A stretch of 59,712 nt of DNA, the filler included, from Sphacelaria rigidula (lineage: Eukaryota): assembly GCA_964200075.2 (NCBI GenBank). It is 5 parts of 5 records of this genome, joined end to end, with 100 filler letters (N's around TTAATTAATTAA, not from the genome) between each part and the next. Parts side by side here need not be neighbours in the genome. Positions count along the whole stretch, not along the records: positions 11,965 to 23,827 come from CAXNAA020004406.1; 4 more parts are not named here. One strand, written 5' to 3'. Under the pieces are notes generated by a model, which saw nothing but the letters and a program-made list of their open reading frames with translations, made no database searches and had not been told where the DNA came from. The translations under genes and the position numbers were made by a program. Below are positions 3,257 to 55,810 of the stretch, piece after piece (position 1 is the first letter of the stretch; each line of letters starts with the position of its first letter).

Positions 3257-6200
3257 GAGATGTTGCACGAGCGGACGCACGTGCTGGCCAAGAGGCAGAA
3301 GCTGGTGGGGCTTAGTGTCGGAGGCAGACCTGCCGCAGACGACTGCCCTCTGGAGAAAATCCGGCTCAAGACTCCGCACCGCTTCATACTCATGGGCACA
3401 CCAGAGGTGCGTGCGGAGCCAATCCGGTACCTGCAGTGAAAAATCGGGTCTCAGAATTACAATTGAGAAACTGCGGATCACAATGTTCAAAGTATACGGC
3501 ATACGGTGCACAGATTGGAGCTTCAGTTGTCTTCCACTCTGGAAGATGAAAACACAGGCAAGAAATGAACAGTTATATCGGGGAAAGTTTGAAGGAGTCG
3601 GGGATCCGGTTCTCCGCCTTGGATGCAAAACACGACCCACAAACATTAACCGTACTGCGTAGCACCCAAGCTTTCCTTCATCAATCTGCTAAACGGACAA
3701 ATCAAACCTCCAGCAACCGAAGCAAGATATACACGCAGTAGTAGAGTACGGCTCAGTACAGTTGTGCATATGCTAGTGAGTGCTGCTGGCTCAACCCTCC
3801 GGGCGCCGGAAGTCTCGAATCGTCCCTAGATCACAAACAAAAAACGCGCGGAAATCGGCGCCTTTGGCCATATTGAATACGCCATGTTACGCGGGTGGGG
3901 AGTTCGGGACCCGAATTTCTACGGGAGAGGGTGCTATCGGGGGTAAGTTAGTGGTATGGAAGTACACTAAAACCAAGATAGACCCAGATGGCCCTTTTTG
4001 CTTGCTACTTGAGTAAGGCGATCTGACAATTCCAGCGATTGGGGACGAATCGAGCGCATTTGCACATTTTTGCGACGTACGTCCAACGTGACAATTGCCT
4101 CATTATTGGTGCCACGGGCTTGTGCACGAGTCCTTCATTAAAATCCCCAGTACAACTCCGACTGGATGGGAGCGACGACGGAGAACACTGTGCGGTGTCT
4201 TGTCTCGTATTCCCCAACGGTGACCCTCAGTAGTTCATCGCCCACGCTTCGTCGCACAACACATCGCCCTGGTAAAACACAGGCCAGCAATGACCTCTGG
4301 CCAGCGGTTGTTGGGTCACCATCGCTAATCTTCTCCTTTGCGCCGCCGCTTGCACCTCGTTTCCAGTATGTAATGTCTGCAGACCGCTGCCTCACTGCAC
4401 GCAAACTGTCATCTTCATCCTGCTGTATGCAGGCAGTACAGTCAGTACTGTAGTGTCTGCACTGCACGCTATTCGACTCTGTTTTATATTCTTCTCCATG
4501 CCGACTGTACAAGCAGTACCGTACTATCTGTACGGCACGTTGTTCAAATATTTTCTAGTACAGTACATGGCTGCACATATGCCGCGGGACTGTGAGCCGA
4601 AACGTCGTGCCGGAACGAGGCCCAGCGCTCGGAAGATGATGTATCATTTTTTTTCAGTTTTAGCGAGTACTCGCCGGAATGGAAAGCACGTGGAGGGTTC
4701 TGGCAAAGTATTAGAACAATGAGGCGCGTAGCATTTTTGAACGCTCAGAGTATGTAGATGAGTCCTCCCTACAGTTATTCGTGTATCTCCAGCTCGTCCT
4801 TCGGCCGCAAACTGTGCTGTCCACGGAGACTGCAGGTGTAATGTCGAACTATTTGCGCATCGTAAAGTCACCAAGCCCCCACAGCTCGCAAGGAAACTCG
4901 CGAAAGAGGATGTACAAGTGGCGGGATGCTGAAAATTGAAAAAAAAAATACTCAACCGATCCGCCCCCTCTGACAGCCAAACTTGGTACTTTAATTCCTC
5001 CAGGGTTGAAGAGAGAGCACCTGAAAGCACGCAAGAAATGATCGCCTGGCTCTCAGCGTACGCCCTCTTTTCTTTTAGATCCGTTGACAACCATACATTT
5101 TTCGGAATCTTCATGTCTGCTTTTGTTTTTCTGTTGTCCCCTGGAAATAACGTGGAAAACGGGAACTGCACGGTTTTACTGTTGACCTTTTCGGCTAACC
5201 TCCTACGTTCCTCATGTTCATCTCACTGCCATGACAGCACAGTGAAGGCGCCCGGTATTACCATCACTCCCGAACACGGTTAAAAAATTGTCTGCGAAAC
5301 GGTCGAGTTATTTTCCTTGCGGTATCGTGAACGTGCGTGCCCGAAATCGCATTTTGATAACTGGCATTGCTGGTTTTCGAGGGCGCAAAGCCTTTACAAC
5401 GGGAGTTGGGCAACGACCACGAAGATAAGAAACGACGAAAACTGTACTGAAATTGCGCCAAAACGAGAAAAAAGAAAAGAAAATCGAGGATATGCTCGGG
5501 GGGGAAAAAATCAGCAAAAATGGGTATAAGTGGTTTTGAGTCTGCATTACAGAATGATTCCGGCGTGTCCGCCTGTCTTCGATCCGAAGCCCTCGCGATG
5601 TGTGGCACGATGTTGTCTCTGTTGACCGTTGCGTCTCTCTGGCTTCACCCTGCCGCGACCTGACAGTGTTTTATCTTCGTCCCTGTACCTGGCGTGTGTA
5701 GGCGGAAATTTTCGTCGACCCGGGAGAAAAGGAAGACCTACCTGATGTTTTCGACGGTGGGTTAATTTCATGTCCATGCTTGTTGTGCTGCCATTCGCTG
5801 TTGATTGTTCTCGTTTTCATTTCGGTGGTAGTTTCGGCTGGTGAATGTATCTTCGTTCTTGTTTAGTCGCTGTACGTTTATTTTTTTATTTTTTATTCGC
5901 CTGTAGTTCTTGTTTTGATGTACACAATGTCGGGACGCACCCTTGGTATCATCTGTATCCAGGTTACTGTTGTGCCGTTTGTTATCTTGAAATGGTTGTG
6001 CGATATTTCGGCTCTTCTCGATCATACAGACTTCGATCTGGACGTGTCGCACGCAAGCGACGAATGGAGACACGCCATCGAGAACTCGGAAAATTTAATT
6101 AAATTCTCCGAAAAAACTGAGGTAAGGTTCACATGTCTGCCTTCACCTAACAAAACTGTACATGGGGAGATATCTTCGGTGTTTCATTTTGCGTGGGTCA

Positions 6201-6564: not shown

Positions 6565-9500
6565 CTTTCGGCCTTCCTCCTGCCCAGCAGTAATGTCGAG
6601 ACCAGGTGACGCCAATTTCGACCGTACATTGCTTTCCTTTTTCGTGCCAACGTTTCGTTTTTGTTCTTTCAGCTTCATTTCATCAACCCACCAAGGGACG
6701 GGAAAGCCCTGCTTGTGCTGGACTTGGATCACACGCTGCTGGACTTCACCTCGAGGGTGAGCGTGTGAGCGTGCTTCCCCTTTCAACGCTGTCGGGTTTT
6801 CAACATTGAATCCCGCGGAGCACACGTGATGTGAATCGTTTAGATCGCAGACACCATCTCAGATACCCTGTTGGCGTTTTCAGTCAAGCTCCAGCCGGTT
6901 CTCTCTCTGCGCGCGTTCTACAGTATGGGTCTCTGTCGCCCCCCCCCCTCCTCCAAGATTGGTACTAGGACTAGGAACGGTTCTCCGTCTGGAAAGGGAT
7001 GCTTGGTCCATGGTCAAACGACCAATGCAAGCAACAGATGAGTACGCCCCACCCCCCCGCCCTTGGCCTGGTTACCGTTTTGTTCTTTGCGCGCTTGCGT
7101 TTTTTTGCGGTAACCATGATGGTAGTCGAGCTAGATCATGTTGTGCGGCGTGGGGAAACTTCAACTACGCACAATGGGGATAATCGTACCGCGTAGTATT
7201 TGAGACACCAATGAGGCAGTGTATAAGCCATGGCTGTCTCTTAATGTGGCGAAAGCAGGAAATGAAGCAACTCAATGCAGGCTGTCATCCAAATGCAAGA
7301 TAATCAGTGGGCTTCGGGTCGAACAATCTTGGCAGGACGTAGTTCACCCTTCATGCGACTCGCCGAACACACCACCACGCTTCGCGCTTGGTGGTTTGAG
7401 TGCGAGCCTGGTCTGGCGAAAACCCGGCGTGCTCCATCCCGGCTTTATGGGGATGCGAGGTCAATGGTCACATGCCTATGGCATGCATGATCATGAGTAC
7501 ATCCCCGCACCCTCAACATTGATGACCATGAGTTGCTGTACTCTACCGCAGCCGGGGGAGATATCTGACAGCTTCACGACCACCGCTGGGTTCGCATAGG
7601 GTGATACATGGAGACCCAAACTGAGCTTGGTCAGGAGATGGCACATGACAAACTACGTATCCAACACCCATCAGCGAACCGTTGTGTAGAGAACTCTGAC
7701 ATCATTTCAGTTCAATTGAGCCACAAAACATGTGGTGCGAGGACGGTAAAGAGCAGCGTCTTTGCCTGCAGATTTCACATCTCGGCTTCAACGTTTCCTG
7801 TTCACCCCCTGCTGTACACATTCCACGAAAACACAAAACACAGGATACGACTCTCCCAGAGCAGATGAAGCGGCCGCACATGGACGCGTTTCTTACGGCG
7901 GTGTACGAATACTATGACCTGTGCGTATGGAGTCAGACATCATGGCGATGGCTTGAGCTTAAACTCACGGAGCTCGGTTTTTTGAGTAACCCCAACTACA
8001 GGTGGAATGTATACGAGAGCTGCTTGCCTGTAAGTGATGTGAAATTTTAATCTCGGGGGGATGTCGGCGTAAACAGGTGAACACGCGAAATTGCAAGGAA
8101 ATTGTTCGAGGAAGAACCGTTTATCGTTGAGGAAAAAGCCATTCGTTAATACGCGAGTGTAACATCGTGCGAGATATCGCTTTAGCTGAAGGCCTGCTAT
8201 CCACAGTGCAGTATGTCTGTGCAGCGCGCAGCGTTCGGAATCAGATTCGAGCGCTTTGTGAAGCAGCAGCGCGACACCCTCCCCTGACTGATGTGAACAC
8301 GCACGACATGATCCGGGCAGGATATGCACGGTGTTGGACAAGACGTCCATGTTTGGGGTTACGAGTACGCTCAAGGGCGGAGAGCAACGCCACCATCAGG
8401 TTAGACAAGTTCGTGCATCCGCCCGACGTTAGCGCTGGAGGTGGCCGTTTATACCACCCTCAAATGACGATAAGAGTATCGGAGAGCTTAGTTTTCGCCA
8501 TCGCCGAAATATTTGATGAACATCGCCGCTGCAAACCCTTTCTTATCATGTCACTTGTGATCTCAACTAGCTGAAAGTTCATGTATTTTTCATGTGTCAC
8601 CGATATTGGGGGTCAAGTTGGGGTCTGTCTCATCACAGTACCGTCGCAACTCGAGTCTTTGTTCACTGCGCGGCCTTCATGAAGTCGAACTCGTTCGCGC
8701 AATGTTGCTTGATACGAAAAGTTTGGCGATCATTAAAGGAGGAAAACGCATTCGCAGGCTCATGTTCCGGCTAGTTGGGCGCGATCTGGTCGGCCATCAC
8801 TTGTTGCTGGGGATTTATTACCGGGGACACTTTCCCGTCGCGCCTCGGTGCATGTAGTGTAGGTACACCAATGGCCAACCAGGGCGGAGGGTTGCAGGTT
8901 CGACTCCAGACATGCATGAGTTAACTCGAGCACAGACAGCGGCGCCCGCCCACAAGAGCCAGTCTTTCGTGGTACTTTATTGAAATAAATGCTCTGGTTT
9001 ATGTTTTTGAAGACGTGGCGACCTGACTAGCAACGGAAAGTTGACGAATCGACGAGGCGCGCGGGTGCTGGTCCTATTTTCGATACCACAATGTAAGGTA
9101 TGTCCCATCGGAGATATGGGTATATCTCTTGAGACCACGGACCCGTGCCGGGAAAAGTGGATAGGGGTCAACAGCCTGCCGAGGATGAAAGATGACCAGC
9201 GCAGTTTCTCGTTCCTGTTGATGAATGTGCCGTGGTGACAAGGGATCTAAAGGGTTGGTGACCGTGTTGTGATGACGAGGGTTCTAGCGAGTTGATGACC
9301 CGAGTTCGTCCCAGAACAAACTATGCCGTGCAATCCTCAGCCACCCCCCAAACATGTGCTTGAGATAGGCGAGAACAAGCGTCAAAACCAGACAGTTTCC
9401 TGCATCGAAGTCACTCTTATGCTTCGATCGTCTTGTTCCCATGCCCCCCCCCCCCCCCCCCCCCCACCCCACCCCCCCCCCCCCCCGCCCACCCCCCCAC

Positions 9501-10362
9501 CCACCAACGGGGTAGCGACCACACNNNNNNNNNNCAAACCTTTTCCTTCACCGAAATCTCCCTTTTTCTTCTGTCGCCTTTTTCCCAAACCCCCCCCCCC
9601 CCCCTGAATCAACGAAACCTCACCGTTCGCAGGTGAAACCGCTCAAAATATTGTGGGATAAACATCCTCGCTGGAACGCAAAAAACACGCTTCACGTGGA
9701 TGATCTCGCGAGGAACTTCGCTCTGAATCCCAAGTGAGCAGTGCTACTGATTCAAACTTGCACGGAACAGGGTCATGCAGCAAATATGCGATTGCTTTTT
9801 AGGGGGTCATGATCGAGGGAAATCCCGAGGGGTACCGCGGATGCCGTTCGTTTTTCAAGTAGTTTGCCCAGAATGTCGCCTACTTCTCACGAGCCTAGTT
9901 AGTCGTCGGTGCGACCTGAGCTTAGCTGCAGCGATACTCATCCTTCAACGGTTTTGCAGCAAGGCTTGATTGCGCTGGACTGTTTCGTCGGGTAAACACC
10001 ACCACCTGAGCGACGGGATTGGCGCGTCGCGCGCTTGACAATATATTCGATTTTTTCGTGGCACGGGGTTGAGCAGCCTGCGTGTTTCCAAATAGCTTCT
10101 ACTCTCTGTACACACTACACTGTGGTGAGCACGGTTTAGATTCAATCACGAGCATCCATCCCCTCCCTCTCTGGCGGAATTCCCTGTTGTTGGCAGATGC
10201 GGCGTGAAGGTCAAGGCTTTCAAAAGAAAAAGTAGCAGCGCGTCAACAGACGATGAACTCATGCTTTTGGCCCGCTACCTGTGCCTGGTGGCCAAGCGAG
10301 AAGATGGCTGGGAAGGGCTTGACCACATGGACTGGAAACGCGAACTCAGAAGGATGGGATGA
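3257..10362 (+). CDS. UBLCP1: Ubiquitin-like domain-containing CTD phosphatase 1 (HAD subfamily IIID), 5'-partial, 8 exons
   Basis: GT-AG, phase-consistent exons: 3257-3406 (EMLHERTHVLAKRQKLVGL...FILMGTPE, UBL domain), 5702-5756 (AEIFVDPGEKEDLPDVFD), 6030-6121 (DFDLDVS...KFSEKTE), 6673-6756 (LHFINPPRDGKALLVLDLDHTLLDF, HAD DxDxT motif), 7844-8001 (MKRPHMDAFLTAVYEYYDLCVWSQTSWRWLELKLTELG), 8321-8399 (ICTVLDKTSMF), 9633-9733 (VKPLKILW...NTLHVDDLARNFALNP), 10197-10362 (CGVKVKAF...DELMLLARYL...LDHMDWK, TGA stop). Collinear with animal/plant UBLCP1 as recalled. First exon/ATG not located. Confidence 0.95.
6511..6563. repeat. (GT)n microsatellite in a UBLCP1 intron
   Basis: Perfect GT run. Similar (GT)/(CA)n runs at ~53080-53138, ~53902-53934 and ~59456-59489. 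Confidence 0.95.
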
Positions 10363-11864: not shown

Positions 11865-11964
11865 NNNNNNNNNNNNNNNNNNNNNNNNNNNNNNNNNNNN
11901 NNNNNNNNTTAATTAATTAANNNNNNNNNNNNNNNNNNNNNNNNNNNNNNNNNNNNNNNNNNNN
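11865..11964. other. Artificial 100-nt contig spacer (N44-TTAATTAATTAA-N44)
   Basis: Identical spacers at 11865-11964, 23828-23927, 35790-35889 and 47752-47851; the central 12-mer gives stops in all six frames. Confidence 0.97.
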
Positions 11965-14614
11965 TCAGCATGGACGTCCAGGCGTGCTCAGGCGTGGCAC
12001 GAGGCGCAAGATTTGGTGGCGCATGCCGTCGCTTTGTCATATCCCAAGCAGGGGTATGAGGTTCTCATGTTTCCAGACGCATCGGACCTACACTGGGGCA
12101 GCTATATCACGCAGGTGCCCGAGGATGAGCTGGGTGGTATATTGACGGTGGAAGACATGAGCCATGAGCTGATGGGATTTCTCAGCGGAACGTTTCGTGG
12201 AGCGCGGGTTCGGTGGGCTACGGTGGACAAGGAAGGCTATGCAATCGTAAGTACTTTCCGTAGGTTGGAATATCTTCTCTGGGGTGGGGTACATACCTTT
12301 ACCGATCATCGTAACCTCGCATATATTTTTAACCCCGAGGCGTGCGTTGCATCCGTCTCTAAGACTGCTGCCCAGAGGCTCAAGCAATGGAAGGCTGTGC
12401 TCGGGCAGTATGATTACTCCATCAGGCACATTGCTGGTGAGCGCAACTGCTGGGGAGATTCATTGTCAAGGTGGGTAAACGTTCCGGCGGTGTCTGTACG
12501 TGCTGCGGCCGTGTTTGCGAGCGGTCAACCTGATGAAACGCTGCCGTCGAAGGACGCTATTCGTGAGGCCGAAGAGCAGGCTCAAGCCGGGTTTGGAGTG
12601 GTGGATGGTGGAGCCCCTACCTGTGCAGCAGCTGTTTGGCGAGTTTCAAAAGACGGTGGGGGTTTGTTTCGCGTGCATGTAGCACGGCGGAGTGTGTTGT
12701 GGATCCCGCCGCAAACAAAAGAGCTGCGAACACGCTTGATGGTGTGTGCTCACATGAAGGAGGCGGGTCATCGGGGTGTTATGGTGACACTGCAGCGGCT
12801 GCAAGAGTATTGCTGTTGGTTTCAGATGGACGCTCACGTGACGGATTTTGTGAGGAAATGCTTGCATTGTGTGGACTCGAAGGCGGGTGAGATGGTCCCG
12901 CGGCCACTAGGGGAGACAGTGCATGGCACACGGCCCGGTGAGGTGATACATTTTGATCATCTATACGTTGGCGAAAGTGGCCCGCTGGGCGAGAGCGGCC
13001 TGGATGAAGGCGACAGGTACAAGTACATATTTTTAATGATGGATGATCTGTGCAATTTTGCGTGGTTGGAGCCCACCGAGTCTTGTACAGCTGCAGCAGC
13101 TGTGCAGCATCTGCTGGCGTGGTGCAAGGCGTTGGGCCCGCCGGAGGTCTGGGTTAGTGACACCGCATCGCACTTTAAGAACCATGTGATGCGAGCATTG
13201 GAGAAGGCGCTGAAGCTGGACAGGAGGTTCGCGGTTCCAAACTCGCCGTGGTCAAATGGTACGTGTGAAAGGATGATGCGCGAGGTTGTCCGCACTTTGA
13301 AGGCCATGCTGCAAGAAGAGAGGCGCGACGTTCGTGACTGGGTGGGACTGGTGCCTGCCGTCCAGTGGGCATTGAACACGGCATTCCGCGAGCGCTACGC
13401 CAGTACGCCATACCATGTGATGTTTGGACTGTTTTTCAACCCTGGCATCGTCGACAGGCGGCGAGTGGCGACTTGATGTGCTGGATGAGTACATGCTGCG
13501 GGAGAAGGTGGCGTCAGTCGTGGAGGAGCAGCAAGCGTTGCACAAGGAGGTGGCGCAGCGTGTTGAGAAGACCCGTGAACTGCAACGACGTGTCGCTAGT
13601 AAGAGACAGTTGCCAAATTTCATGGTGGGTGACGATGTGTTGGCTGCGAGGGTTAGGCGCTCAGGTACAACGCCAAAACTCGTAAGTACGTGGACAGGAC
13701 CGTGGAGGATCGTGGCAGCGGAGCATCAGCATGTGTACGAGATTCAGAATATCGTAAACGGAGAGGTGAAGGACGCGCATGCCTCCCGTCTACGGTACTA
13801 CGCGGACAAGCAGCTGGCGGTCACTGCGGATCTAAAAGAAGTGTTCCAGTATACGTTTGCGCAAGGAGAATTCGAGATGGAGGCGGTCGTTGACTTGTCC
13901 GAGGCCCAAGACGGTGATGGGTTCGTTTTACACGTGGAATGGGTAGGTTTCGGCAAGGATGAGAGCTCGTGGGAGCCTCTGGAAACCATTTTGGAAGGAG
14001 CCCCGCAGTTCGCACGTTCTGAATTGCGTAGGTTGCGACTAACAAAGCAAGTACGGGCCCGTTTGCTGGCTAAGTATGGGCTCAAGCCCTGATTGATTGG
14101 GTTACCAGCAGTGATTGGTTGTTGGCGTAGTTCATGATTCTACTATGCCATTTGGCGTACGTTGAGTATACCGCTTGGTCATTGTTTGCCTAACATGTTG
14201 GGTAGTTCGTGCTGGTGTGTTATGATTATACTGGGGGGGCCATCGTGATTTGACCTGATGTGGTCTGATGATGCTTGTCTCTTCTTGACATCGTAGGGTA
14301 CTGTCGGTGTCTACTGTTTTGTCAAATTCGGTTCCTACTTCAAGTAGTGCGAGGGTTTGGAGGGTGCTGTAGAGAAGTTCACCTACAGTATCCATCATGT
14401 AGATATGCGGTGGATCCTGGATTGATTGTTTGGAGGATGACTTTTGGATGCGTAACATATCGTGTTCGTGAGGAAGCTCGTAAAGCGTACTTCTGGTTAA
14501 CGAAGACTACCGTTTGTATAACTGCTTGAAGTCTTGAAGTCTCTGGAGCCCGTGACTGGGAGGAAGCCTCTGGAGCAGCACTGTAACCTTGTCCTGATTG
14601 CAGGCAGGTTCACA
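11965..14614 (+). mobile_element. Ty3/Gypsy LTR retrotransposon with chromodomain, 3' half (RNase H-integrase-chromo, PPT, 3' LTR)
   Basis: ORF 12013-13476: RNase H (MFPDASDLHWG, VDKEGYAIV, TDHRNL, GDSLSR), integrase HHCC (CAHMKEAGHRG...CLHC) and D-D-E (HFDHLY, VSDTASHF, NGTCERMMR). After a frameshift at ~13425, ORF 13424-14092 has the GPY/F motif (WTGPWRIV) and a chromodomain (FEMEAVVDL...VEWVGFGKDESSWEPLETI). G-rich PPT at ~14233-14240. 5' part cut by the contig edge. Confidence 0.93.
14244..14614 (+). repeat. Putative 3' LTR of the chromo-Gypsy element (~370 bp)
   Basis: Starts just after the PPT (cgtgatttgacctg, CG instead of TG) and ends caggcaggttcaca (imperfect terminal inverted repeat, CA end), exactly where homology to the 5.36-kb repeat begins. 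Confidence 0.65.
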
Positions 14615-15042
14615 GCACGCGTATTTTCCGCCCTCATGTTCTTTTTGAACCGTGCTCCGATCTGATCGAGCTTTTGTTTCGTCATTGTCGCCTGCATTGT
14701 ATCACCTTCGCCTGACCTACACCTGCTCACCCATAACATCACCGCTGTACCTAACCAGCAATGATCGTGTTCCAGGCATTCTCCATGTCATTTCGGTATT
14801 TTTGTTGCATATTGAATTGGGACTATCAACCCACCATGATCAGTATGTACTTTGTTTCCGGGGTTGCATTTTTACTGTGATCATGGGGATTTGTGGAATG
14901 CACATGCAGTAAAGCTTCTATTTCATTTCGATCTTGTTTGCTTTTCTTTCATCTTACATACTCATATTGTCTGCATCTCCGGGTGTCGTGTCTACCCTAA
15001 CTGTCTTTTGAGCCCCTCGATTGTATTTTGAGTGCTTTGTAA

Positions 15043-15282
15043 TTTTGCGCCGCCGTCGTCTTGCTCTTTTGAGCTGCACTATTTTTCATTTCATGTTCTG
15101 GAATTTTGTCTTTTATTTTGATTGTCTTATCATTTGCGCCGCCGTCGTCTTGCTCTTTCGAGCTGCACTATTTTTCATTTCATGTTCTGGAAATTTTGTA
15201 TTTTATTTTGATTGTCTCATCATTTGCGCCGCCGTCGCCTTGCTCTGTAGAGCTGCACTATTTTTCATTTCATGTTCTGGTA
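15043..15282. repeat. ~89-bp minisatellite (3 units here, 2 units in the second copy at ~20450-20595)
   Basis: Unit tttgcgccgccgtcgtcttgctct..gagctgcactatttttcatttcatgttctgg... recurs at ~15044, ~15133, ~15223 and at ~20451, ~20538. Confidence 0.9.
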
Positions 15283-16989
15283 ATGTTTTTCTTTGACCGT
15301 GCGGGTGTAGGATATCCGCAGCGCCTTGTCTGTTGCTCTGCCTGTACTTATCATGCTCGAGCAGGATGCCGCTTGCAGCCGTTTCATCTACCTGGTTCGC
15401 AAGGCCGAAACGCCGAATTTACTGCCCGGCACATGACATTCCGATCTGCATCACGTGGTATAAAACCGAGCCATATTTTCACGGACTCTCAGACTTTCAA
15501 CGTATACTAACCATGCCCTCTATTACTTCCGCCCTTGTTTCACCTACACTCTTGTCCTGGGTGTGTCGCATCCCGATGAGGGAACCGGCGCTAAACGCCA
15601 TTGCGTTGGGGAGGACACGCAGGAAACGCTGAACGGTTTGCCAATGACGGTATGTTCCGGCGTGGAGTGTCTGCAATTGGGTTTGGTTTAGCTAATCCCG
15701 GGTACCTTTTTATAGCATTCTGTTAGCAGGGTTATTACCTTGGTGCCACTAAACAGGATCCCCATTTCATCCCACACTGGTAATCGATTGTATGGTTTGC
15801 TATTCACCAGGTTGACTTCTTGACGCACCCTGTACCGTAGTTGGATACTACCTTGTTCCTTCGCGGTACCGTAGTTGTATACTACATTGTTCAGTTGCTT
15901 CAAACTTGGTTTTCGATATCATGCTGCCACTCATCTGCCCGTGCATTGCCTTTTCATTACTTATTCAGTACGCAGACGTACGTAGTTCCCTATTTTGCCT
16001 TTCTGCCCTTCATGCCCTGCGTACCATGCAAGTTGACTGCGCGACTATATATCTTGTCTTTGACGGTTCTCACAGGCCCTACATATAGTTTTTAGACAAT
16101 TATTTCGCTCATGTGGTAGCTGAACCCCCTTGGGGGGGGGGCGAAGTACGAGTTCCTACTGTCTTGATGGTCGCTGTACAGCGTGCACACCCTTTGCCAC
16201 AAAACAACGCGGCCTCCTACCATAAAAACACCGCATGATCAGAGAATAAATTCACAAGCTTCTTTACCGAGGTGTTGCTCACCCAACTTTCCCCGGCAAC
16301 GTTTGTCGACTACACGACTTTATACCACAATGCGGTCTCCTCATAATGGCTTAGCTACGATATGGCACACGAACTTGGGACCCGCCTAACAACCATCAAT
16401 GTACAGCTCATGCATATGAGGTCATCTTTCTTGTCATTTCTGTGCTTTGTCTCTGTGTATTTAGTACATCGTATCTCATTATTATATTTTATTCAGCATG
16501 CCTTGTTATTTTATTTTCTCCACGATTATGTATACAGTTTTACAGGAATCGAAGAATTGGGGGCACGGCTGCTGAAATATTCACGGCACTGTACAAATCT
16601 TGGCCTCAGAGATAGAGAGAGTTTGTTTCACCCACATTCTTGGGCGATAGCACCCTACCCGACGACTCGACGCCATGCTACCGTCTGACACGTTTCCCTT
16701 CGAGCTCTGGACTGGCCGTGAGCATTACACACGTACTACAGCTGTATCAAAAGTAAAAAGTCCCTTCCATTTCCGTCCACCTCATCTAGAGCAGTCTATA
16801 GCTGAAGTGTTTGCGTCCCACATTGGAGAGATCGAACTAGAGAATGACACCCACATTCCACCTGACCCCTGAATTTGCCACCGTGTTGGATTGCATTGCC
16901 TGAATTTGCCACCGTGTTGGATTTTCGAGAACTCTACGTTGTTTCAGGCACTGACGGGTGGGGAAAGGGGGAAGACTTCAAGGGGCGGG

Positions 16990-17360
16990 AGGGCATACTC
17001 ATTTGTTTCGAGCATCCAAGTAATTTCCTCAGCTGCTTTCATCTGTACTGTTCCCAACTTCTTCACCAACTTCATTGCACCCAAGTATTTTCTTAGCTGC
17101 TGCCATCCGTACTGTTTCCAATTTCTTCATGAACTTAACCCCTTGCTTTGCTGTGTCTAATGCCAATATCAGGTCATCAATGAATACCTCGAGTAGAATG
17201 GGTGATAACGTACATCCTGGGGCAACTCCTTGCAAAATATAAAAATATTTCGATATTTCCCCGCCTAGCATCATCGCACTTTTGGCACATTTCTGTCATC
17301 TTTACCATCGTCCACACCTTTCGTTTGACCCCAGTTTCCTATAAATTTCCCACAACCCAT
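16990..17360 (-). mobile_element. Degenerate non-LTR (LINE) reverse transcriptase fragment inside the tandem unit (second copy ~22345-22710)
   Basis: ORF 17029-17274(-) reads ILQGVAPGCTLSPILLEVFIDDL (RT QGxxLSP motif) fused directly to KKLETVRMAAAKKILGC (post-RT region), with the YADD segment deleted. Confidence 0.75.
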
Positions 17361-18346
17361 TGCTTCATACTGCGTCATGAGCCTTTTGCACCTTCATCAC
17401 CCCCACAGTTTCTTCTACCCTGCCATCGTACTCGGAGCACCCCGCTCCCCCACGTAGTGATGCCTTAAAGCTTTTGCTCATAGGTGCTACCTCCTGGAAA
17501 GGCTATAGCAGTGCCCAGCTGAAGCGCCAAGTGTATGATTATGGGAATCGCTTCGGCGAGTACGATAGGAAGATGGAGACTGGAAAGAGCTATCTCGCCG
17601 GGAACTCGAGCGCCCTAAGCTGGAACGGAGGAGCCAAGGATAGACTGCAGTCATCGATGTTTACGAGTAGCTGTTGTGTGATGTGGTATATGATATCATC
17701 GCGAGAGGAATGCGGTGATGGAATAAGTGAAAAAGTAGCTCTATATCGCTGGTACCGTACGTTTCAGTCATGAATTTCGGGTGTTCCTGTATTTTTCCTT
17801 TTTGTCGCTTTGTTAGATATTGCTCCCCATTTGGTAACATACGGGTACATGTGTGAGCCAAGGAGCGTGGGCTCTAGTTCCAGTAGAATAGGCGTCAGTA
17901 GTTACAGAAGAGCACCCCTCAAAAGCTGCACTCCTGTAACTATTGATCAGTTCGTGGAAAGGTTGTTTTTGGCGAGGTTCAAGCCCCGCACTACCCCAGA
18001 ATCCAGTCTAACTGATCCGGGGTGTCGACGCGCGATCAAGCTAACTAGCCGATCGTTCTCCAGTCTAACTGAGATCCCGGGAAAACGACAGCGATCGTAC
18101 TAGTCTGCTGTTTCTGTCGTTGGAAAGGGCGTTATAGATTTTTTACCTTTCCTAACGGATGGAGGTTTCCCCTGCTTATCAGGGTTTACCTATTCATTAG
18201 ATCTGCAACGAGTTTTCCCCTGTACTGTAATTCAGCAGGTTTTTCTCGTTTTATCTTCAGGCGTTGATGCACAGGCTTCGTTCTTTTTTCGGCCCCTCCA
18301 GCCCATAAATCCTTTTTGTTTAGCCTTATCTATAAGGCTGGGGGCA

Positions 18347-18750
18347 TGTCATGGATTTATTGGTCATTTTCCAGTCGACTAGGCTTCATGTGTCATACTT
18401 TTGTAATGCTTTGTGTCAGATTATCTACCCATGTTCTCACAGAGCTTTTAGGATTGATCCCAGCACGTACAGCAGCCTGTCGCCGATAATACAAGAAGCA
18501 TTTACGCCATCCATGGATTGCGATATCAGAGGTGTCGCTGGTCTTCGTCTAAAGCAAGCCTGACTTGCCTGCAGCTGGTGTTGCCCCGAGCATGCGCTGC
18601 AGGTGGAGAGTTACTTTGAACCATCTTGCATGCATAATCATCATCGAACTCGGTCGGATCCTGGTGCTTCCATGTCTTTTGAGATGACTACTCGGGTGCC
18701 CACGAACTGGCCCCCTTCACCTCTAGACATCCACCACGTGATTTGTGACA
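18347..18750 (+). repeat. Shared LTR (~404 bp) of the tandem element; second LTR starts at 23703 and is truncated by the contig end
   Basis: TGTCA...TGACA termini, PPT immediately upstream, PBS immediately downstream; 18347-18471 matches 23703-23827. Confidence 0.7.
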
Positions 18751-18786
18751 TGGTGACCAATCCGAGAATCGAACTCGGGTTTCCAC
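18751..18786 (-). other. Retrocopied 3' half of a mature tRNA (CCA encoded) forming an extended primer-binding site; not a tRNA gene
   Basis: Reverse complement = GTGG AAAC CCGAG TTCGATT CTCGG ATTGGTC A CCA: perfect 5-bp T-stem with 7-nt TTCGA loop, 7-nt acceptor strand, discriminator A and CCA. Confidence 0.8.
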
Positions 18787-19419
18787 ACGTGATTTGTGAC
18801 ATGGTGCCCAGCCCGTAAGTTACTTGCGTGCCGATGGTGTCACCCCCGGCGACGTCCCACCAAAGACAACCAAAATATTGTTTTGGGGGGGGGGGTGTTA
18901 TCGCGTCATGGGTTTGATCTGCACTGCAACATCAATGTGCGATGTATCCTGCTTCGGCTCTTGCACTCGTTCGCTCTGTCGTCTACTTACCATACGTACG
19001 TTGAGCATGAGAAGTTGAGCATAGGCTATGTAGTTTGTTCTTGTCCCGTTGTACCCTTTGTTCCTCCCTGGGTTTGCCTCGTGGGTGCCCTGTGCTCCGT
19101 CTTTCCGCCCGCTGCATAATTATACCGTACTCATGCACAAACAGATCATCAGGTGATCAGAACCAGCTTCTCAACAGTGTCGCGCCCTGCAATATGACGG
19201 AGGTAACCAGACGTTCAAAGCACAATGACCTGAGCCGATATATAATTGAATGAAAGGCAACTACGGTCGGTACGAGAATATGTACGAGCATCTGTACGAG
19301 CATCATCAGGAGGTGCTACAATTTTTCATCCCGGCGGACTCGTCATTTTACTTCGGGCTGCATGATGGAGACGGCTAGTCTTCAGGGCTTCTGGGGGCTG
19401 CTGGTACACATGGCCGTGG

Positions 19420-19780
19420 TGTCTATCCATGCTGCTGTGGTGTCTTCGCCACACGGCTGTGTTGTTGTTCTGTGCTGTTGCTCGTCGCTGCCGCGCTGCT
19501 GCTGTGTGTTGCTGCTGCCCGCCGCACGGCTTTGCTGTTGTTTTGTGCTGTTGCTTGCGCTGCCGAACCGCCGTTGTGCCGCTGTTTGTTGAAGCCGTGC
19601 CGGTGTTGCGTTGCCCTTATTGCGGTGCTGCTGCTGCTCGACGCACTGGTGTGCTGTTGCTGCCTGCCGTTGTTGTGTTTCCTTCGTGCGGCTGTGTCGT
19701 CGTTACTGTTGCTGCTTTACCGCTGCCTTTGTTGTTGTTGTTGTTGTTGTTGTTGTTACTGTTGTTGTTGTTGTTGTTGT

Positions 19781-19824
<44 letters not shown>

Positions 19825-19935
19825 GCTGCTGCTGCTGCTATGTTGTTGTTGTTGCTGCTGCAGCTGCTGCTGCTGCTGCGGCTGCTGCTGCTGTTTCCAC
19901 CGTGCCTCCCACTGCCCTGATTTGCTGTTGTCCCG
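19420..19935. repeat. Compound (GTT)n/(GCT)n trinucleotide low-complexity tract
   Basis: Long gttgtt and gctgct runs, purest at ~19730-19892. Confidence 0.95.
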
Positions 19936-22900
19936 CTTGTTGTGTTGCTATTTTTGCCTCTACCACCTACTGTCGGCTGTACTTTTCTCGAATGCTATCG
20001 CATCGCATGTTGTCATGTGCACGCGTATTTTCCGCCCACATGTTCTTTTTGAACCGTGCTTCGATCTGATCGAGCTTTTGTTTCGTCATTGTCGCCTGTA
20101 TTGTATCACCTTCGTCTGACCTACACCTGTTCACCCATAACATCACCGCTATACCTAACCAGTAATGATCATGTTCCAGGTATTCTTCATGTCATTTCGG
20201 TATTTTTGTTGCATATTGAATTGGGACAATCAACCCACCATGATCAGTATGTACACTGAATTCCAGGGTAGGTTGCATTTTTACTGTGATCATGGGGATT
20301 GGTGGAATGCACATGCAGTAAAGCTTCCATTTCATTTCGATCTTGTCTGCTTTTCTTTCATCTTACATACTCATATTGTCTGCATCTACGGGTGTCGTGT
20401 CTACCCTAACTGTCTTTTGCCCCTCGATTGTATTTTTAGTGCTTTGTAATTTTGCGCCGCCGTCGTCTTGCTCTCTCGAGCTGCACTATTTTTCATTTCA
20501 TGTTCTGGATTTTTTTTTTTTTTTCATTGTCTCATTATTTGCGCCGCCGTCGTCTTGCTCTGTAGAGCTGCACTATTTTTCATTTCATGTTCTGGTAATT
20601 TTTTGTATTGTGTTTGGCGCTCGTGATGTTTTTCTTTGACCGTGCGGGTGCAGGATATCCGCAGGGCCTTGTCTGTTACTCTGCCTGTACTTATCATGCT
20701 CGAGCAGGATTCCGCTTGCAGTCGTTTCATCTACTTGGTTCGCAAGGCCGAAACGCCGAATTTACCGCCCGGCACATGACATTCCGATCTGCGTCACGTG
20801 GTATAAAACCGAGCCATATTTTCACGGACTCTCAGACTTTCAACGTATACTAACCATGCCCTCTATTACTTCCGCCCTTGTTTCACCTACACTCTTGTCC
20901 TGGGTGTGTCGCATCCCGATGGGGGAACCGGCGCTAAACGCCATTGCGTTGGGGAGGACACGCAGGAAGCGCTGAACGGTTTGCCAATGACGGTATGTTC
21001 CGGCGTGGAGTGTCTGCAATTGGGTTTGATTTAGCCAATCCCGGGTACTTTTTTTTAGCATTCTGGTAGCAGGGTTATTACCTTGGTGCCACTAAACAGG
21101 ATCCCCATTTAATCCCACACTGGTAATCGATTGTATGGTTTGCTATTCACCAGGTTGACTTCTTGACGCACCCTGTACCATAGTTGGATACTACCTTGTT
21201 CCTTCGCGGTACCGTAGTTGGATACTACATTGTTCAGTTGCTTCAAACTTGGTTTTCGATATCATGCTGCCACTCATCTTCCCGTGCATTGCCTTGTCAT
21301 TACTTATTCAGTACGTAGACGTACGTAGTTTCCTATTTTACCTTTCTGCCCTTCATGCCCAGCGTACCATGCAAGTTGACTTCGCGACTATATATCTTGT
21401 CTTTGACGGTTCTCACAGGCCCTACATATATTTTTTAGACATTTATTTCGCTGATGTGGTAGCTGAATCCCCTTGGGGGAGGGGGCGAAGTACGAGTTCC
21501 TACTGTCTTGATGGTCGCTGTACAGCGTGCATACCCTTTGCCACAAAACAACCCGGCCTCCTACCATAAAAACACCGCATGATCAGAGAAGAAATTTACA
21601 AGCTTCTTGACCGAGGTGTTGCTCACCCAACTTTCCCCGGCAACGTTTGTCGACTACACGATTTTATACCACAATGCGGTCTCCTCATAATGGCTTAGCT
21701 AGGATTTGGCACACGAACTTGGGACCCGCCTAACAACTATCAATGTACAGCTCATGCATATGAGGTCATCTTTCTTGTCATTTCTGTGCTTTGTCTCTGT
21801 GTATTTAGTACATCGTATTTCATTATTATATTTTATTCAGCATGCCTTGCTTATTTTATTTTCTCCATGATTATGTCTACAGTTTTACAGGATTCGAAGA
21901 ATTGGGGGCACGGCTGCTGAAATATTCACGGCACTGTACAAATCTTGGCCTCAGAGATAGAGAGAGTTTGCTTCACGCACACTCGTGGGCAATAGCACCC
22001 CACCCAACGACCCGACGACCCGACGCCATGCTACCGTCTGACACGTTTCCCTTCGAGCTCTGGACTGGCCGTGAGCATTACACACGTACTACAGCTGTCT
22101 CAAAAGTAAAAAGTCCCTTCCATATCCGCCCACCCCATCTAGAACAGTCCATAGCTGAAGTGTTTGCGTCCCACATGGGGGGGATCGAACTAAAGAATGA
22201 CACCCACATTCCACCTGACCCCTGAATTTGCCACCGTGTTTGGATTGCATTGCCTGAATATGTCACCGTGTTGTATTGTCGAGAACTCTCCGTTGTTTCA
22301 AGCACTGACGGGTGGAGAAAAGGGGAAGACTTCAAGGGGGGGAGGGCATACTCATTTGTTTCGAGCATCCAAGTAATTTCCTTAGCTTCTGTCATCTGTA
22401 CTGTTCCCAACTTCTTCACCAACTTCATTGCACCCAAGTATTTTCTTAGCTGTTGCCATCCGTACTGTTTCCTATTTCTTCATGAACTTCACCCCTTGCT
22501 TTGCTGTGTCTAATGCCAATATCAGGTCATCAATGAATACCTCGAGTAGAGTGGGTGATAACGTACATCCTGGGGCAACTCCTTGCAAAATATAAAAATA
22601 ATTCGATATTTCCCCGTCTAGCATCATCGCACTTTTGGCACATTTCTGTCATCTTTACCATCGTCCACACCTTTCGTTTGACCCCAGTTTCCTATAAATT
22701 TCCCACAACCCATTGCTTCACACTGCGTCATGAGCCTTTTGCACCTTCATCACCCCCACAGTTTCTTCTACCCTGCCATCGTACTCGGAGCACCCCGCTC
22801 CCCCACGTAGTGATGCCTTAAAGCTTTTGCTCATATAGGTGCTACCTCCTGGAAAGGCTATAGCAGTGCCCAGCTGAAGCGCCAAGTGTATGATCATGGG

Positions 22901-24849
22901 AATCGCTTCGGCAAGTACGATAGGAAGATGGGGACTGGAAAGAGTTATCTCGCCGGGAACTCGAGCGCCCTAAGCTGGAACGGAGGAGCCAAGGATAGAC
23001 TGCAGTCATCGATATTTACGAGTAGCTGTTGTGTGATGTGGTATATGATATCATCGCGAGAGGAATGCGGTGATGAAATAAGTGAAAAAGTAGCTCTATA
23101 TCGCTGGTACCGTACGTTTCAGTCATGAATTTCTAGTGTTCCTGTCTTATTCCTTTTTGTCGCTTTGTTAGATATTGCTCCCCATTTGGTAACATACGGG
23201 TACATGTGTGAGCCAAGGAGCGTGGGCTTTAGTTCTCAGTAGAATAGGCGTCCGTAGTTACAGAAGAGCACCCCTCAAAAGCTGCACTCCTGTAACTATT
23301 GAGCGGTTCGTGGAAAGGTTGTTTTTGGCGAGGTTCAAGCCCCGCACTACCCCAGAATCCAGTCTAACTGATCCGGGGTGTCAACGCGCGATCAAGCTAA
23401 CTAGCCGATCGTTCTCCAGCCTAACTAAGATCCCGGGAAAACGACAGCGACCGTACTTGTCTGCTGTTTCTGTCGTTGGAAAGAGCGTTATAGATTTTTT
23501 TCCTTTCCTAACAGATGGAGTTTCCCCCTGCTTATCAGGGTTCACCTATTCATTAGATCTGCAACGAGTTTTCCCCTGTACTGTAATTCAGCAGGTTTTT
23601 CTCGATTTATCTTCAGGCGTTGATGCACAGGCTTCGTTCTTTTTTCGGCCCCTCCAGCCCATAAATCCTTTTTGTTTAGCCTTATGTACAAGGCTGGGGG
23701 CATGTCATGGATTTGTTGGTCATTTTCCAGTCGACTAGGCTCCATGTGTCATACTCTTGTCATGCCTTGTGTCAGATTATCTACATATGTTTTCCCAGAG
23801 CTTTTAGGATTGATCCCAGCACGTACANNNNNNNNNNNNNNNNNNNNNNNNNNNNNNNNNNNNNNNNNNNNTTAATTAATTAANNNNNNNNNNNNNNNNN
23901 NNNNNNNNNNNNNNNNNNNNNNNNNNNTAACGGCAGTTATGATCATCGCCTCCGTGCACGTTTTTGGCCGGTTTGGGGGGGGGCTATCTCGGCAGCAGTC
24001 CTTTGTGTGGGACCTTGCGAGGTCGTGATGAAACAAGAATATGGGTGAGGTTGGGTTTTATTTTATTTTTCACTGATTGAGGGCATTTTAGTATGGTAAC
24101 GATGATTTTTTTACGAGAACGCCCGACCCTCGCAAGAAAAATAAAAAAATGAAGGCCCATTTTTTTTTTACTCAGCATACCTCTGTCGTTCTCCATGCCA
24201 AGTTTCAAATCACAAATCTAATACTTGACCTGAAAAATTGAGTTAAGGCCCAAGGGCAATATTCATTTTTCCTCAAAGCCCCCCTAAAAACACGAAAAAA
24301 GATGAAAAAAAACGAAGAAAAAACCCGGGAAAACTAAGTTTTTAATTCGTTATGCACTAGCGGTTCTCCATGCCAAATTTCATAGCACAACTCTCAAAAA
24401 CTGAGACGCGATATCCAGATTTAGGTCATCTAGTGCCTCTGCTCATAATATACTGATTTTAGTATAGAACATTATGTGCGCCATTTCTCAAGATAGATAA
24501 CGAATTAGGTGAAAGTGAGGGTATCTATCGTCTCCCCGTGCTTCAGGGAAGGTCCCCACCAAAAATCGCCATCATCCGCTCGATCGATCGTTCGGGGTTG
24601 CATATAGATTTTAATGTGGACGCTATCTCCGCCAGGTATAGGAATTACTATACATGGGGTTTACTCGACGAGGGAAAATGGGCCCAGATTTTTGAGCAGA
24701 TGGGCACCTTCCCCTTGATCAGATGATGCATACGATATGCGGATCACGGCCCAACTCGTCTGTGTCGTTGAAATATCGCTTTTGGAGCTTGAATCCGTTT
24801 TTAGGCTGGCCCAGCCTGTAGACTGCACACTCTGCTTAACGTTCGTGGA

Positions 24850-33952: not shown

Positions 33953-36900
33953 AGGCTCGTTTCAATATTGCTCGATAGAGGGTGTGAAAGTTAGCACTGT
34001 ATAGGTAAAGCAACCTTTCGGTACGACGTGGCTGGCATCATGACGTGCTTACCACGGGGTGGGTATCGAAAAGCGCCCAAGGTCCACAAGAAAATGGCAG
34101 ATGGTGAGACAGAAATAGACAAGAAGCGAGAGGGAAGCAGGGGGAGGGGGGGGTGTATAATCGACCTATATGAAAATGTCACGCTCGTTCCATCTACCCA
34201 ATGCCCCCCGTTCCATGTTGTCGCAAGGACGATTTTGATGGTACAAAAATACTTGTAGTACGATTTTTTCATGTATGCCGGGTTGATGTCGCTGGTGGAT
34301 TTTCGCGTAACGATTGGGTGTTGCATCTTGTAGCATGCTAGTGTACAAGGTTGTGTTCTGTACGGTATACCCAGAAGTAGGGGGTGTTTGGTTCGGCGAA
34401 CCAGAGCACAGCGGAGCGTGTGACGAATATTACGGGATGGTCCGGTAGGGCATCGAGCCTTGTTCCGAGAAGTCCGGTATGGTTCATAAGGGCATTTATC
34501 GATGTGATATGCCTTTTATTTCTCTGTAAATACCCGAATATCAGCTGGTATACCCTACAGAACATAACCTTGCTGATGTATGTCGCTGCTTTCGTTCTTG
34601 CATTTTGTAATTGGAGAGTATGTGGACAGGACGGCCGCTTAGGTGCGTGCCGGTCTCAAGTAAGAGTTGGTTCTTGAGCTGAGTTGCGTGTCGCCGTTTC
34701 CTTTTTCTACTGTAAAAGTGCCGAGCCTAGGGTGGCGGTACGTATAAAGTTCGTAACACCGATCATATAAGAAATATGAAGAAGCGAAGATCACCTCGAG
34801 CCCGAATAAAATTCATCTCCCCTGCCGCGTACCTTCCTCGTTTCACTCGCACGAAAAAAATTATTCATGGGTCCCCCAGAGACAAGAGGCGGGTAGCGCT
34901 GGCCGGTCAAAGGTGCGTAGATACTTGCCCGAATATGACTGTGCAGATCACAGCACATTTAACAGTGTTTTCGTGAGATTAAGAATCTACGATACGATTG
35001 AGAGCAGGCTTTTCATGGCTTTCAGCTACCGGGTGCGTCTGCATCATTAATGGACAAAACGCTTACCTCGCACATTGGTGCAAAATCCTGCCGGCAAACC
35101 CAACAATGTTTCGGTGAAATCGAGCGTTGAAAGTACGATTGAGAGTGAGGTTTTATTCATAACATGTCTCGCTGGGCCGGTTCCGATAATGAGACGAAAA
35201 GTTTACATGTGTAGCATGTTGGAACATTCCTGCCGCCCGTTACTTGAATGGAATGGCAGAATAATGTTTTTAAATGTTGCGCGCTGGCCCACAGGTTGCA
35301 TTTGTGGAAAAATGCACCGTTCAAGATGTCTACAAAGTAGTGTGAGTCGTGCGGTTCGAGTAAAAGATACGATTTAGCCAGGTTGTGCCCGAATTCATTC
35401 GCAAATGCAGTTGATGCCACCATTCGTCGTGTGGACTTGGAACTCGTGGGTATCTTGAAATCACTTTTCTGTTCAACAATTTCGCCGCAGTTTCCGTCGT
35501 TGTTTTTGAAAGCGCAAGTCATCGCGTGTGATATGACTGCTGATATCCCGCCTTTTCGTGCCGAGAAAAGTCGTGAAACGTGGTGGGACCCTGGATTATG
35601 TTCCATGATCTCACCCTCGATGGCAGCGGATCATATCAAATTCTCTTGCACGAAGCCAATGGAGCGCCTCCCGTCTCTGAGCTGCAGCAAATCGATTTTG
35701 CCAGGGACTCTCGCCAACCGCATCGGATTTCCGAAAATGCACTCGAAACATGTGCCGACGGACCCATCAAGAACAGCTCATAAGCCATCNNNNNNNNNNN
35801 NNNNNNNNNNNNNNNNNNNNNNNNNNNNNNNNNTTAATTAATTAANNNNNNNNNNNNNNNNNNNNNNNNNNNNNNNNNNNNNNNNNNNNTAGACTGAGGT
35901 CTGTGCAGTATAGGAGGAAAACACGATCTCGATCGTTGTTGTTAAGAATTTTATACGTATTCATTTATCTGAATATTTACCGTTTCGTCGCTGAAGAGTG
36001 GGAAAACTGCATACATTGGACCGAAAACGGTCAATAACACCCTCCTGATAAACGGGGTATCAAGTCCGTACCACCCCGAAAACATCAACTTGAGCACTGC
36101 AGTTTGAGCGCGGCCTACGCGTTCTCCCTAAATCTACCGGCGCCAGCAATTTCAAGCTGTAGTGATGAATTGTACTCCAGAAAAACTAAAAAAATAGCAC
36201 AACTACGAATTCTGAAAACTTCTGATGCTGACTTCTATATTCCAGGTGTTTTCTGCTTGTCTACCCATTTGCTTCGTTGTTACATCGTAGTTCTGCAGTT
36301 TTCCATCTTTCAATCATGGCGTGTAGGCTGGTCAGTCGAATGAGGAAGATGGCGAAAATTAATGGTGGGTTATATAAGGTGGAACGCTTGGTGCGGAGCT
36401 GCCGAACGCCAAACCTCGATTCCTTCAAGGCCCTTAAGGCTGAAAAGGCTTCTACCGAACCGAAATTCAAATAGTGTCCTGTCCTGCGTCCTATCCGTCC
36501 GGGCCTCATTACGAAGCTCCGAACCACGCACTTTTTTCTCGAATTGATTCGAAGCCGCGCTGCGCGAAATAACCATCCCATCGCTCTTCTAACATCAATC
36601 GAGACGCCCTCAACGAATTTCAGCTTCATTGGTGCTCATGGCGTTGTGTTTCACTTCTGTCGCTGGGCGCACTCGAGAACACCCCAATTCGACCCCTTTA
36701 GACCAGAGCGAATCTTGATTGAACCCCTCAGACTTGACTGTCGCAACTTCAATGGAGGCGCTTTTGAAGGTTGGGAGCTTCACACGAAGCAACCGGCTCT
36801 CCGAATCACTTAAAACACCCTCAAGAAGGCTCAGCTTCATTGCTGCCTTTTTCGTTGTCTTCGCTTGTGCGTACCGACGCCGTCCGTGGCTGAGGTGGAG

Positions 36901-55630: not shown

Positions 55631-55631
<1 letters not shown>

Positions 55632-55672
<41 letters not shown>

Positions 55673-55810
55673 ACCCACCGGCCGCAGCCCCAAACCCCCC
55701 CGCCCCCACAACACCGGGACGCACCCCCCCCCCCCCCCCCCCCCCAGTCACACGAGTAAGGCAAGCAACAAATGAGTACGCCTCCCCCCCCCCCCCCCTC
55801 TCTTGCCCCC
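55632..55810. repeat. Poly-C tracts (also ~9444-9605)
   Basis: Long homopolymer C runs; the 9.5-kb tract contains 10 Ns, suggesting sequencing difficulty. Confidence 0.9.

Follow-up and report, generated by a model that had tools for sequence, protein, structure and literature searches.

A tRNA copy of about twice the normal 18 nt, followed by a second primer-binding site, at a probable retroelement LTR end from Sphacelaria rigidula

How does the end of a long terminal repeat (LTR) come to be followed by a copy of the 3' part of a transfer RNA (tRNA) about twice as long as a normal primer-binding site (PBS), then by its own last letters once more, and then by a second PBS? The question is raised by positions 18731-18820 of a 59,712-nucleotide (nt) stretch of DNA from the Sphacelaria rigidula assembly GCA_964200075.2, the whole of which is here called the window, where an LTR retroelement of a very abundant family is found. 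An earlier note had read the locus as the fossil of a reverse transcriptase that ran on into its primer tRNA and then switched template. In our analysis, overshoot into the primer tRNA followed by a microhomology-guided second transfer comes out as the best explanation, one that we hold with moderate confidence. The tRNA copy with its CCA, its position and the restart of the LTR end all stood up to scrutiny, whereas the primer identity proposed in that note was not supported and its element type was incomplete.

The window is made up of five non-contiguous pieces of ~11.86 kb each, separated by four 100-nt joints (11865-11964, 23828-23927, 35790-35889 and 47752-47851), each consisting of 44 N, TTAATTAATTAA and a further 44 N. 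There is no sequence continuity across these joints, and the locus studied here belongs to piece 2 (11965-23827), to which the other four pieces show no similarity by BLAST.

The tRNA-derived insert behind the probable LTR end

The claimed LTR end reads ...GTGATTTGTGACA, and a tRNA-like insert follows directly behind its terminal ...TGACA, bracketed by a 21-nt exact direct repeat (CACGTGATTTGTGACATGGTG; 18735-18755 identical to 18786-18806, period 51). The parts of the junction are the following:

18731-18750, plus strand: LTR end, ...CCACCACGTGATTTGTGACA, with the terminal ...TGACA
18735-18755, plus strand: first copy of the 21-nt exact repeat, composed of the last 16 nt of the LTR and TGGTG
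18751-18786, tRNA sense on the minus strand: copy of a tRNA 3' part, TGGTGACCAATCCGAGAATCGAACTCGGGTTTCCAC, recognised by tRNA pattern, Rfam T-arm match and sequence
18786-18801, plus strand: restarted last 16 nt of the LTR (18787-18801 being ACGTGATTTGTGACA), recognised by the exact repeat, its first 1-3 nt (C/CAC) ambiguous with the tRNA copy
18802-18819, plus strand: PBS2, a primer-binding-site-like sequence, TGGTGCCCAGCCCGTAAG, with 12 of 18 letters in common with PBS1 and present as the site in a single-site family copy

The letters of this layout are exactly as the earlier note had given them. A 20-mer of the direct repeat occurs twice in the window and in none of 100 shuffles. Past this stretch of identity, only 11 of 30 positions match between the 51-nt units, and this abrupt change from 21/21 identity to 11/30 rules out a simple or a decayed tandem duplication. 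The restart begins 16 nt inside the LTR end, and the 1-3 nt (C/CAC) that the tRNA copy and the LTR end have in common agree with the microhomology that had been proposed there. A run of ten G (18884-18893) is located shortly downstream of PBS2.

Read as its reverse complement, 18751-18786 contains, in order, the 3' strand of an anticodon stem (GTGG), a 4-nt variable loop (AAAC), a T-arm (CCGAG/TTCGATT/CTCGG), an acceptor strand (ATTGGTC), A73 and CCA. The T-arm is perfect, with a 5-bp stem, the G53-C61 pair and a canonical T-loop of the form TTCRANN, and it occurs only once in the window when 2-3 mismatches are allowed. The first 18 nt of the insert (18751-18768) constitute a perfect primer-binding site, here termed PBS1. 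To estimate how often such a string arises by chance, we searched both strands for a tRNA pattern consisting of a 5-bp T-stem with G53/C61, a TTCRANN loop, eight free bases and CCA; the window holds one site, the insert itself, against 0.023 expected per simulated window (seven sites in 300 first-order Markov simulations of the window). CCA, A73, acceptor strand, T-arm, variable loop and the first part of an anticodon stem are all present, as in a copy of a tRNA 3' half.

The length of 36 nt given previously is correct in its essence, about twice the usual 18 nt, but is better expressed as a range: 35 nt (18751-18785) are certainly tRNA-derived, and the copy possibly reaches as far as 18788 (tRNA position 38), the end being ambiguous by 1-3 nt because C/CAC is common to the end of the restarted repeat. 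A continuation of the tRNA into the LTR end beyond 18788 was considered and rejected, as position 37 would then be a pyrimidine (C) and position 33 an A, neither of which is known in a tRNA. The anticodon lies outside the tRNA-derived fragment.

Profile searches gave a limited signal. When the 38-nt stretch was isolated, Rfam returned a truncated T-arm match of the tRNA clan (a tmRNA 3' end; E = 8e-4, 11.8 bits), which is far below the gathering score, while a 251-nt stretch gave no tRNA-clan match (only an unrelated DicF, E = 1.4) and the whole window gave no Rfam match at gathering thresholds. ARAGORN found no tRNA genes in the whole window, as is expected because the insert is only half a tRNA.

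Eukaryotic nuclear tRNAs acquire their CCA post-transcriptionally. Since CCA is present in the insert, the copied template was an RNA, namely a mature tRNA, given a eukaryotic host as the retroelement genes and public run labels such as 'algae metagenome' indicate. The insert is thereby supported as a cDNA-type copy of the 3' part of a mature, CCA-bearing tRNA, set in the orientation of a PBS and about twice as long as the normal 18 nt.

Two primer-binding sites, the LTR boundary and the primer

PBS1 and PBS2 agree at 12 of 18 letters, and in both cases TGG follows directly after the CA of the LTR end (at 18751 and 18802). Each site is unique in the window with 2-3 mismatches allowed, PBS1 having no second match within 3. 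When the 3'-terminal 18 nt of the tRNA are placed in register with PBS2, they form 5 + 4 + 3 bp with a predicted energy of -15.8 kcal/mol, against -32.6 kcal/mol for PBS1. This pairing with PBS2 is better than that of 99% of 1000 shuffles of PBS2 and of 99.6% of 2000 random 18-mers of the window. This predicted pairing makes PBS2 a possible priming site for the tRNA of the insert or for one of its close isoacceptors.

The LTR boundary was examined in public sequence data, where ten runs from three studies (with labels including 'algae metagenome') contain 6-44% of the words sampled from 14000-20100; no RNA run was among those listed. Contigs of the runs X1, X2, X4 and X6 were aligned to 17200-19700 at a likeness of at least 85%, and all contigs above this threshold were summed in 84-nt bins to give a depth profile, which is not a copy number. 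The number of contigs placed on this region was 3705-4311 per run for the three larger runs and 252 for X6. The family is thus very abundant and heterogeneous, with thousands of contigs at 85-99% likeness and many joints and loose ends. From bin 18712-18795 to bin 18796-18879, the summed depth falls from 9686 to 915 in X1, from 52852 to 6047 in X2, from 16302 to 1491 in X4 and from 70 to 20 in X6, i.e., ~9- to 11-fold in the three larger runs and ~3.5-fold in X6. This fall, seen in four of four runs, fits an LTR/internal boundary near 18750-18801, which summed contigs in bins of this size locate only roughly. No loose contig ends at 18750 were found among the rows listed.

In one X2 contig (depth 81.8, like the other X2 records listed), 18735 continues directly at 18788, two other letters apart, and the contig represents a single-site form in which the LTR end is followed by PBS2. 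The view that the second PBS is the older, mismatched one agrees with this contig as well as with the 12/18 shared letters and the predicted -15.8 kcal/mol. Together, the pairing of PBS2 and the contig that carries PBS2 as its single site support the reading that PBS2 is the family's older site, with a relation to the tRNA of the insert or to one of its close isoacceptors, and that the 51 nt were inserted. The related claim that TGACA is an LTR end is supported only indirectly, by the fall in depth in all four runs, by the inverted TGTCA/TGACA terminus described below and by the single-site contig, but the partner repeat in the window is cut before its own end and offers no second example. A search for the LTR end plus TGGTG gave 0 matches in viral_contigs.

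Two further features were observed in these contigs along the LTR. Contigs leave the sequence of the window with a common continuation at 17291 (50-65 in each larger run, 13 in X6) and at 18401 (34, shown for X1 only), and the summed depth varies ~40-fold along the LTR. Given these departures and this variation, the 4.1-kb LTR looks like a mosaic of segments common to other repeat families.

Which tRNA served as the primer is a separate matter. The 21-nt string of variable loop and T-arm was fetched from 104 loci (2 viral and 102 metagenome), and ARAGORN placed it in 98 metagenome or viral tRNAs of 19 anticodon classes, including Glu(ctc) (20), Pro(cgg) (19), Ala (15), Asp (8), His (7), Glu(ttc) (5), SeC (5) and Gln (4) in addition to others. 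Being spread over so many isotypes, this string cannot name the primer. The nearest database tRNA to the insert is a Glu(CTC) with 31 of 33 letters in common, found at 15 loci, and one Glu(TTC) also has GGTGGAAACCC. A His-like primer may still be correct but is not supported, as 7 His against a total of 25 Glu are found among the 98 tRNAs sharing the string, and the nearest match is Glu(CTC). This Glu(CTC) is identical on 15 metagenome contigs (L003, L007 and 13 more), the longest measuring 646 kb and one carrying the label human gut, and adjoins a tRNA-Pro(CGG) there. It is probably bacterial and certainly not that of the host.

The setting of the locus

The surroundings of the junction in piece 2 contain the following features:

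11965-14092, plus strand: Ty3/gypsy (chromovirus-type) pol remnant with RNase H, integrase zinc-binding and core domains, and chromodomain (Pfam, on the translation)
14615-18750, plus strand: long direct repeat copy 1 (BLAST), read as an LTR of ~4.1 kb, ending ...CACGTGATTTGTGACA, with a high summed contig depth in four of four runs
18820-20010, plus strand: short internal region of 1.2 kb, without a recognisable coding domain and with a lower summed contig depth than the LTR
20011-23827, plus strand: long direct repeat copy 2, starting TGTCATGTGCACGCG, with similarity to copy 1 from 20019, cut by the joint at 23827

The two repeat copies match by BLAST at 92.7% between 14615-15208 and 20019-20615, and at 94.9% between 15111-18471 and 20428-23827. 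Copy 2 is truncated artificially, since it runs into a joint of the window; its cut at 23827 corresponds to 18471 in copy 1, which leaves the final 280 nt of copy 1, with the claimed end at 18750, unmatched in the window. The start of copy 1 is possibly at ~14609 (GTTCA). Copy 2 starts with TGTCA (20011-20015) and copy 1 ends with TGACA (18746-18750), forming a 5-bp inverted terminus of the TG...CA type, while copy 1 starts with the variant GTTCA.

The pol remnant begins at the boundary of the piece and carries stop codons and frameshifts in its last third. RT_RNaseH (7.6e-14) and Integrase_H2C2 (6.3e-10) were recognised by Pfam, and rve (1.1e-6; 29.3 bits vs 32.6) and Chromo (4.9e-5; 23.6 bits vs 25.1) matched below their curated cut-offs. 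The remnant ends (~14092) ~520 nt upstream of copy 1 and in the same orientation, which gives copy 1 the normal position of a 3' LTR and the locus the order pol, LTR, PBS region, short internal region, LTR. The proposal of a non-autonomous element is incomplete: the internal part of 1.2 kb has no domain, but with copy 1 ~520 nt downstream of a co-oriented gypsy pol remnant, the element is not a plain non-autonomous insertion.

Coding capacity was also sought in the repeat itself. Nine open frames of the 4.1-kb repeat were searched against Pfam at E up to 1, with no match in eight and a chance-level match in the ninth (E 0.14); for 12 open frames of the repeat and the internal part, there was no match in ten at E up to 1 and chance-level matches in two (E 0.14 and 0.066). 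The LTR is composed of 21% A and 32% T, and the AT skew across 14000-22000 is about -0.26 to -0.34 in three of four 2-kb segments, with -0.10 in 16001-18000. The chain of plus-strand open frames of 90-145 aa is spurious, because stop codons are rare on such an A-poor strand.

Several repeats were observed in addition. A 90-nt tandem repeat is present in the LTR at 15044-15280 (2.7 copies, copy 1) and 20451-20616 (~2 copies, copy 2), and a 64-nt repeat of ~2 copies is present at 17012-17136 and 22365-22491. A microsatellite, (TTG)41 / (TGC)24, at 19729-19893 fills the end of the internal region directly before LTR copy 2, the place in which a polypurine tract would be expected. Elsewhere in the window, C homopolymers or C-rich tracts with runs of 20-40 C are found at 9444-9520 and 55630-55750, in two other pieces, and a further piece carries at 38078-40993 (plus strand) an open frame of 971 aa with RVT_1, RNase H, integrase zinc-binding and integrase core domains. 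The latter is a second and better preserved Ty3/gypsy pol, without nucleotide similarity to piece 2.

How the arrangement may have arisen

The overshoot reading builds on what is directly seen, namely the CCA-bearing tRNA copy with the place and direction in which it lies, the restart of 21 nt and a family copy with a single site. How the events followed one another, which strand took part and why synthesis overshot are inferred as follows. The actor would be an LTR retroelement that is primed by a tRNA, belongs to a very high-copy family, has an LTR of 4.1 kb, is associated with a Ty3/gypsy chromovirus and underwent aberrant reverse transcription. Its plus-strand strong-stop DNA would have started at the polypurine tract, crossed U3-R-U5 and entered the tRNA, which the minus strand still carried, without the stop after 18 nt that precedes position 58. 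Synthesis may then have run 17-20 nt further, past the T-arm and the variable loop, as far as the anticodon stem's 3' strand at tRNA positions ~41-38. The end point could be due either to a stop before a modified purine 37, in a primer without a block at position 58, or to the end of the template, if a 3' tRNA half was copied up to its 5' terminus. The overlong 3' tail would have been unable to perform the normal PBS-to-PBS second strand transfer. Instead, 1-3 nt of it (C/CAC) may have paired with minus-strand DNA in which the complement of the final 13-16 nt of U5 was still present before the element's own PBS, and extension may have continued from there. The product would be an LTR, a tRNA copy (a new and perfect PBS with 17-20 extra nt), the last 16 nt of the LTR, the old PBS and the internal region. 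The fuller statement, that the locus is a germ-line fossil in which an overlong strong-stop product (owing to an unblocked A58 or a 3' tRNA half) was rescued by a microhomology jump and inherited, with a fresh and perfect PBS before a decayed one, strikes us as unlikely.

In favor of overshoot, 1-methyladenosine at position 58 (m1A58) of the primer acts in HIV-1 as the plus-strand stop after 18 nt, and its loss leads to read-through (PMC8599865). Several points weigh against overshoot. The same source argues that read-through products are dead ends, unable to complete the transfer and to integrate (PMC8599865); overshoot at the present locus would require a rare rescue. No purine run that could serve as a polypurine tract adjoins the start of copy 2 (20011), and at the start of copy 1 only GCAGGCAGG adjoins 14609 and GGGAGGAAG is found 45 nt upstream, neither of which is convincing. 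Copy 1 takes the place of the 3' LTR of an autonomous element and is also the 5' LTR of the short unit, an arrangement unexplained by a simple two-LTR insertion. The boundary of the LTR is placed only roughly by the binned sum of contigs of at least 85% likeness, and a second full LTR end is not in the window, copy 2 being cut at the equivalent of 18471. No contig spanning the double-site junction was found among those listed, and the junction rests on this assembly alone. Finally, the host tRNA is a putative one; a 25-mer of T-arm and acceptor had 0 exact matches in metagenome_contigs, and a 20-mer had 0 in prokaryotic genome_contigs.

The alternative that survives best, although we regard it as doubtful, assumes the same copying of the tRNA and differs in what came after. 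The second transfer would have failed, and the intermediate would have been closed by microhomology end-joining into a one-LTR circle or a concatemer, which then entered the genome by homologous recombination with a resident 3' LTR. With an intermediate whose right end was the LTR plus the tRNA copy and whose left end lay 16 nt inside U5 before PBS2, this would give the order pol, LTR, junction, short internal region, LTR at once. It accommodates the position of copy 1, ~520 nt downstream of a co-oriented RNaseH-integrase-chromodomain remnant and thus in the normal place of a 3' LTR, and the finding that what immediately precedes LTR copy 1 is unrelated to what precedes copy 2, so that the two internal regions differ; a junction with only 1-3 nt of common letters is also typical of end-joining. 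In yeast, Ty1 cDNA is known to integrate by recombination and to form tandem arrays. Against this, the pol-LTR-PBS layout can also result from ordinary unequal recombination between LTRs of neighbouring elements, and there is no direct evidence for circles.

Recombination or a template switch between two subfamilies, one whose leader begins with PBS1 and an extended tRNA-complementary stretch and the other whose leader begins with PBS2, joined via their common LTR end, appears improbable to us. The great abundance and heterogeneity of the family (contigs of 85-99% likeness) and the 12/18 agreement between PBS1 and PBS2 would suit such an exchange, but it still requires an earlier event that placed the 36-nt tRNA copy behind an LTR; moreover, no PBS1-only contig was seen among those listed, and no second match of PBS1 within 3 mismatches exists in the window. 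An artefact, whether a chimera created in assembling a high-copy repeat or a string that became tRNA-like by chance through local tandem duplication, is very improbable, for although the region is highly repeated, the source draft-like, the window stitched from pieces and the junction without an independent sighting among the contigs listed, the chance rate of 0.023 per window applies to any position and is far lower at this exact one, the two units diverge abruptly after 21 identical nt, and a chimera would still require reads with the junction of tRNA copy and LTR end.

Compared with known systems, overshoot at the present locus resembles the plus-strand strong-stop synthesis of retroviruses and LTR elements in that the tRNA copy begins with CCA directly after U5, oriented alike, and that its first 18 nt equal the normal product; it differs in that 35-38 nt are copied and fixed in a genome alongside the old site and the restarted 16 nt of U5. 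Retroviruses primed by a non-cognate tRNA can replace their PBS, as is known from PBS mutants and revertants of murine leukaemia virus (MLV) and HIV-1, where the new 18 nt take the place of the old. There too the new site is inherited from the tRNA via the plus strand, and the old site of the present locus is partly complementary (12/18), whereas here both sites are kept in tandem. Replication intermediates of Ty1 with 'untidy ends', i.e., extra nucleotides at the LTR ends derived from reverse transcriptase, were reportedly described by Mules, Uzun & Gabriel in 1998; the likeness is in the aberrant extra nucleotides at an LTR end, and the difference is that those are unintegrated intermediates in yeast and not a germ-line fossil. 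Recombined LTR complexes (LTR-internal-LTR-internal-LTR) and LARD-type large non-autonomous derivatives are further classes to which the locus bears a likeness, with its 4.1-kb LTRs, 1.2-kb non-coding internal region and one LTR common to two internal regions, although its second LTR is cut by the joint and no polypurine tract was found. Helenus and TRIMp3 are non-autonomous LTR elements with a tRNA-like part inside the LTR, which serves as a promoter of RNA polymerase III and for which an origin by insertion of a short interspersed nuclear element (SINE) was proposed (PMC10886601). They share with the present locus a tRNA-derived sequence in an LTR element that is non-autonomous, but membership was rejected, as the tRNA portion here lies outside the LTR, at the PBS, is antisense and comprises only the CCA-bearing 3' part (PMC10886601).

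In the open-access literature searched, we found no description of a genomic arrangement of LTR, tRNA copy longer than 18 nt, LTR end and PBS; older subscription papers were outside the scope of this search. Copying of the primer during strong-stop synthesis, the stop at m1A58 and the inheritance of the PBS from the tRNA are known parts. What is unusual is to find an inherited, overlong genomic copy, a restart in U5 and the old site together. Reverse transcriptase normally copies exactly 18 nt of the primer, and overshoot has been studied in vitro and in HIV-1 cell systems with its product regarded as a dead end (PMC8599865). The mechanism by which LTR elements switch primers has been called unknown (PMC10886601).

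With a single locus and a candidate host tRNA, the value of the present case is that of a lead for a family-wide survey and not of a result in itself. If overshoot is the true origin, a natural and inherited example would show that its products can be rescued, and would point to a 3' tRNA half as the primer. The primer tRNA of a very abundant algal family could then be read directly from DNA, and the locus would illustrate a concrete route for PBS repair and primer switching in LTR elements.

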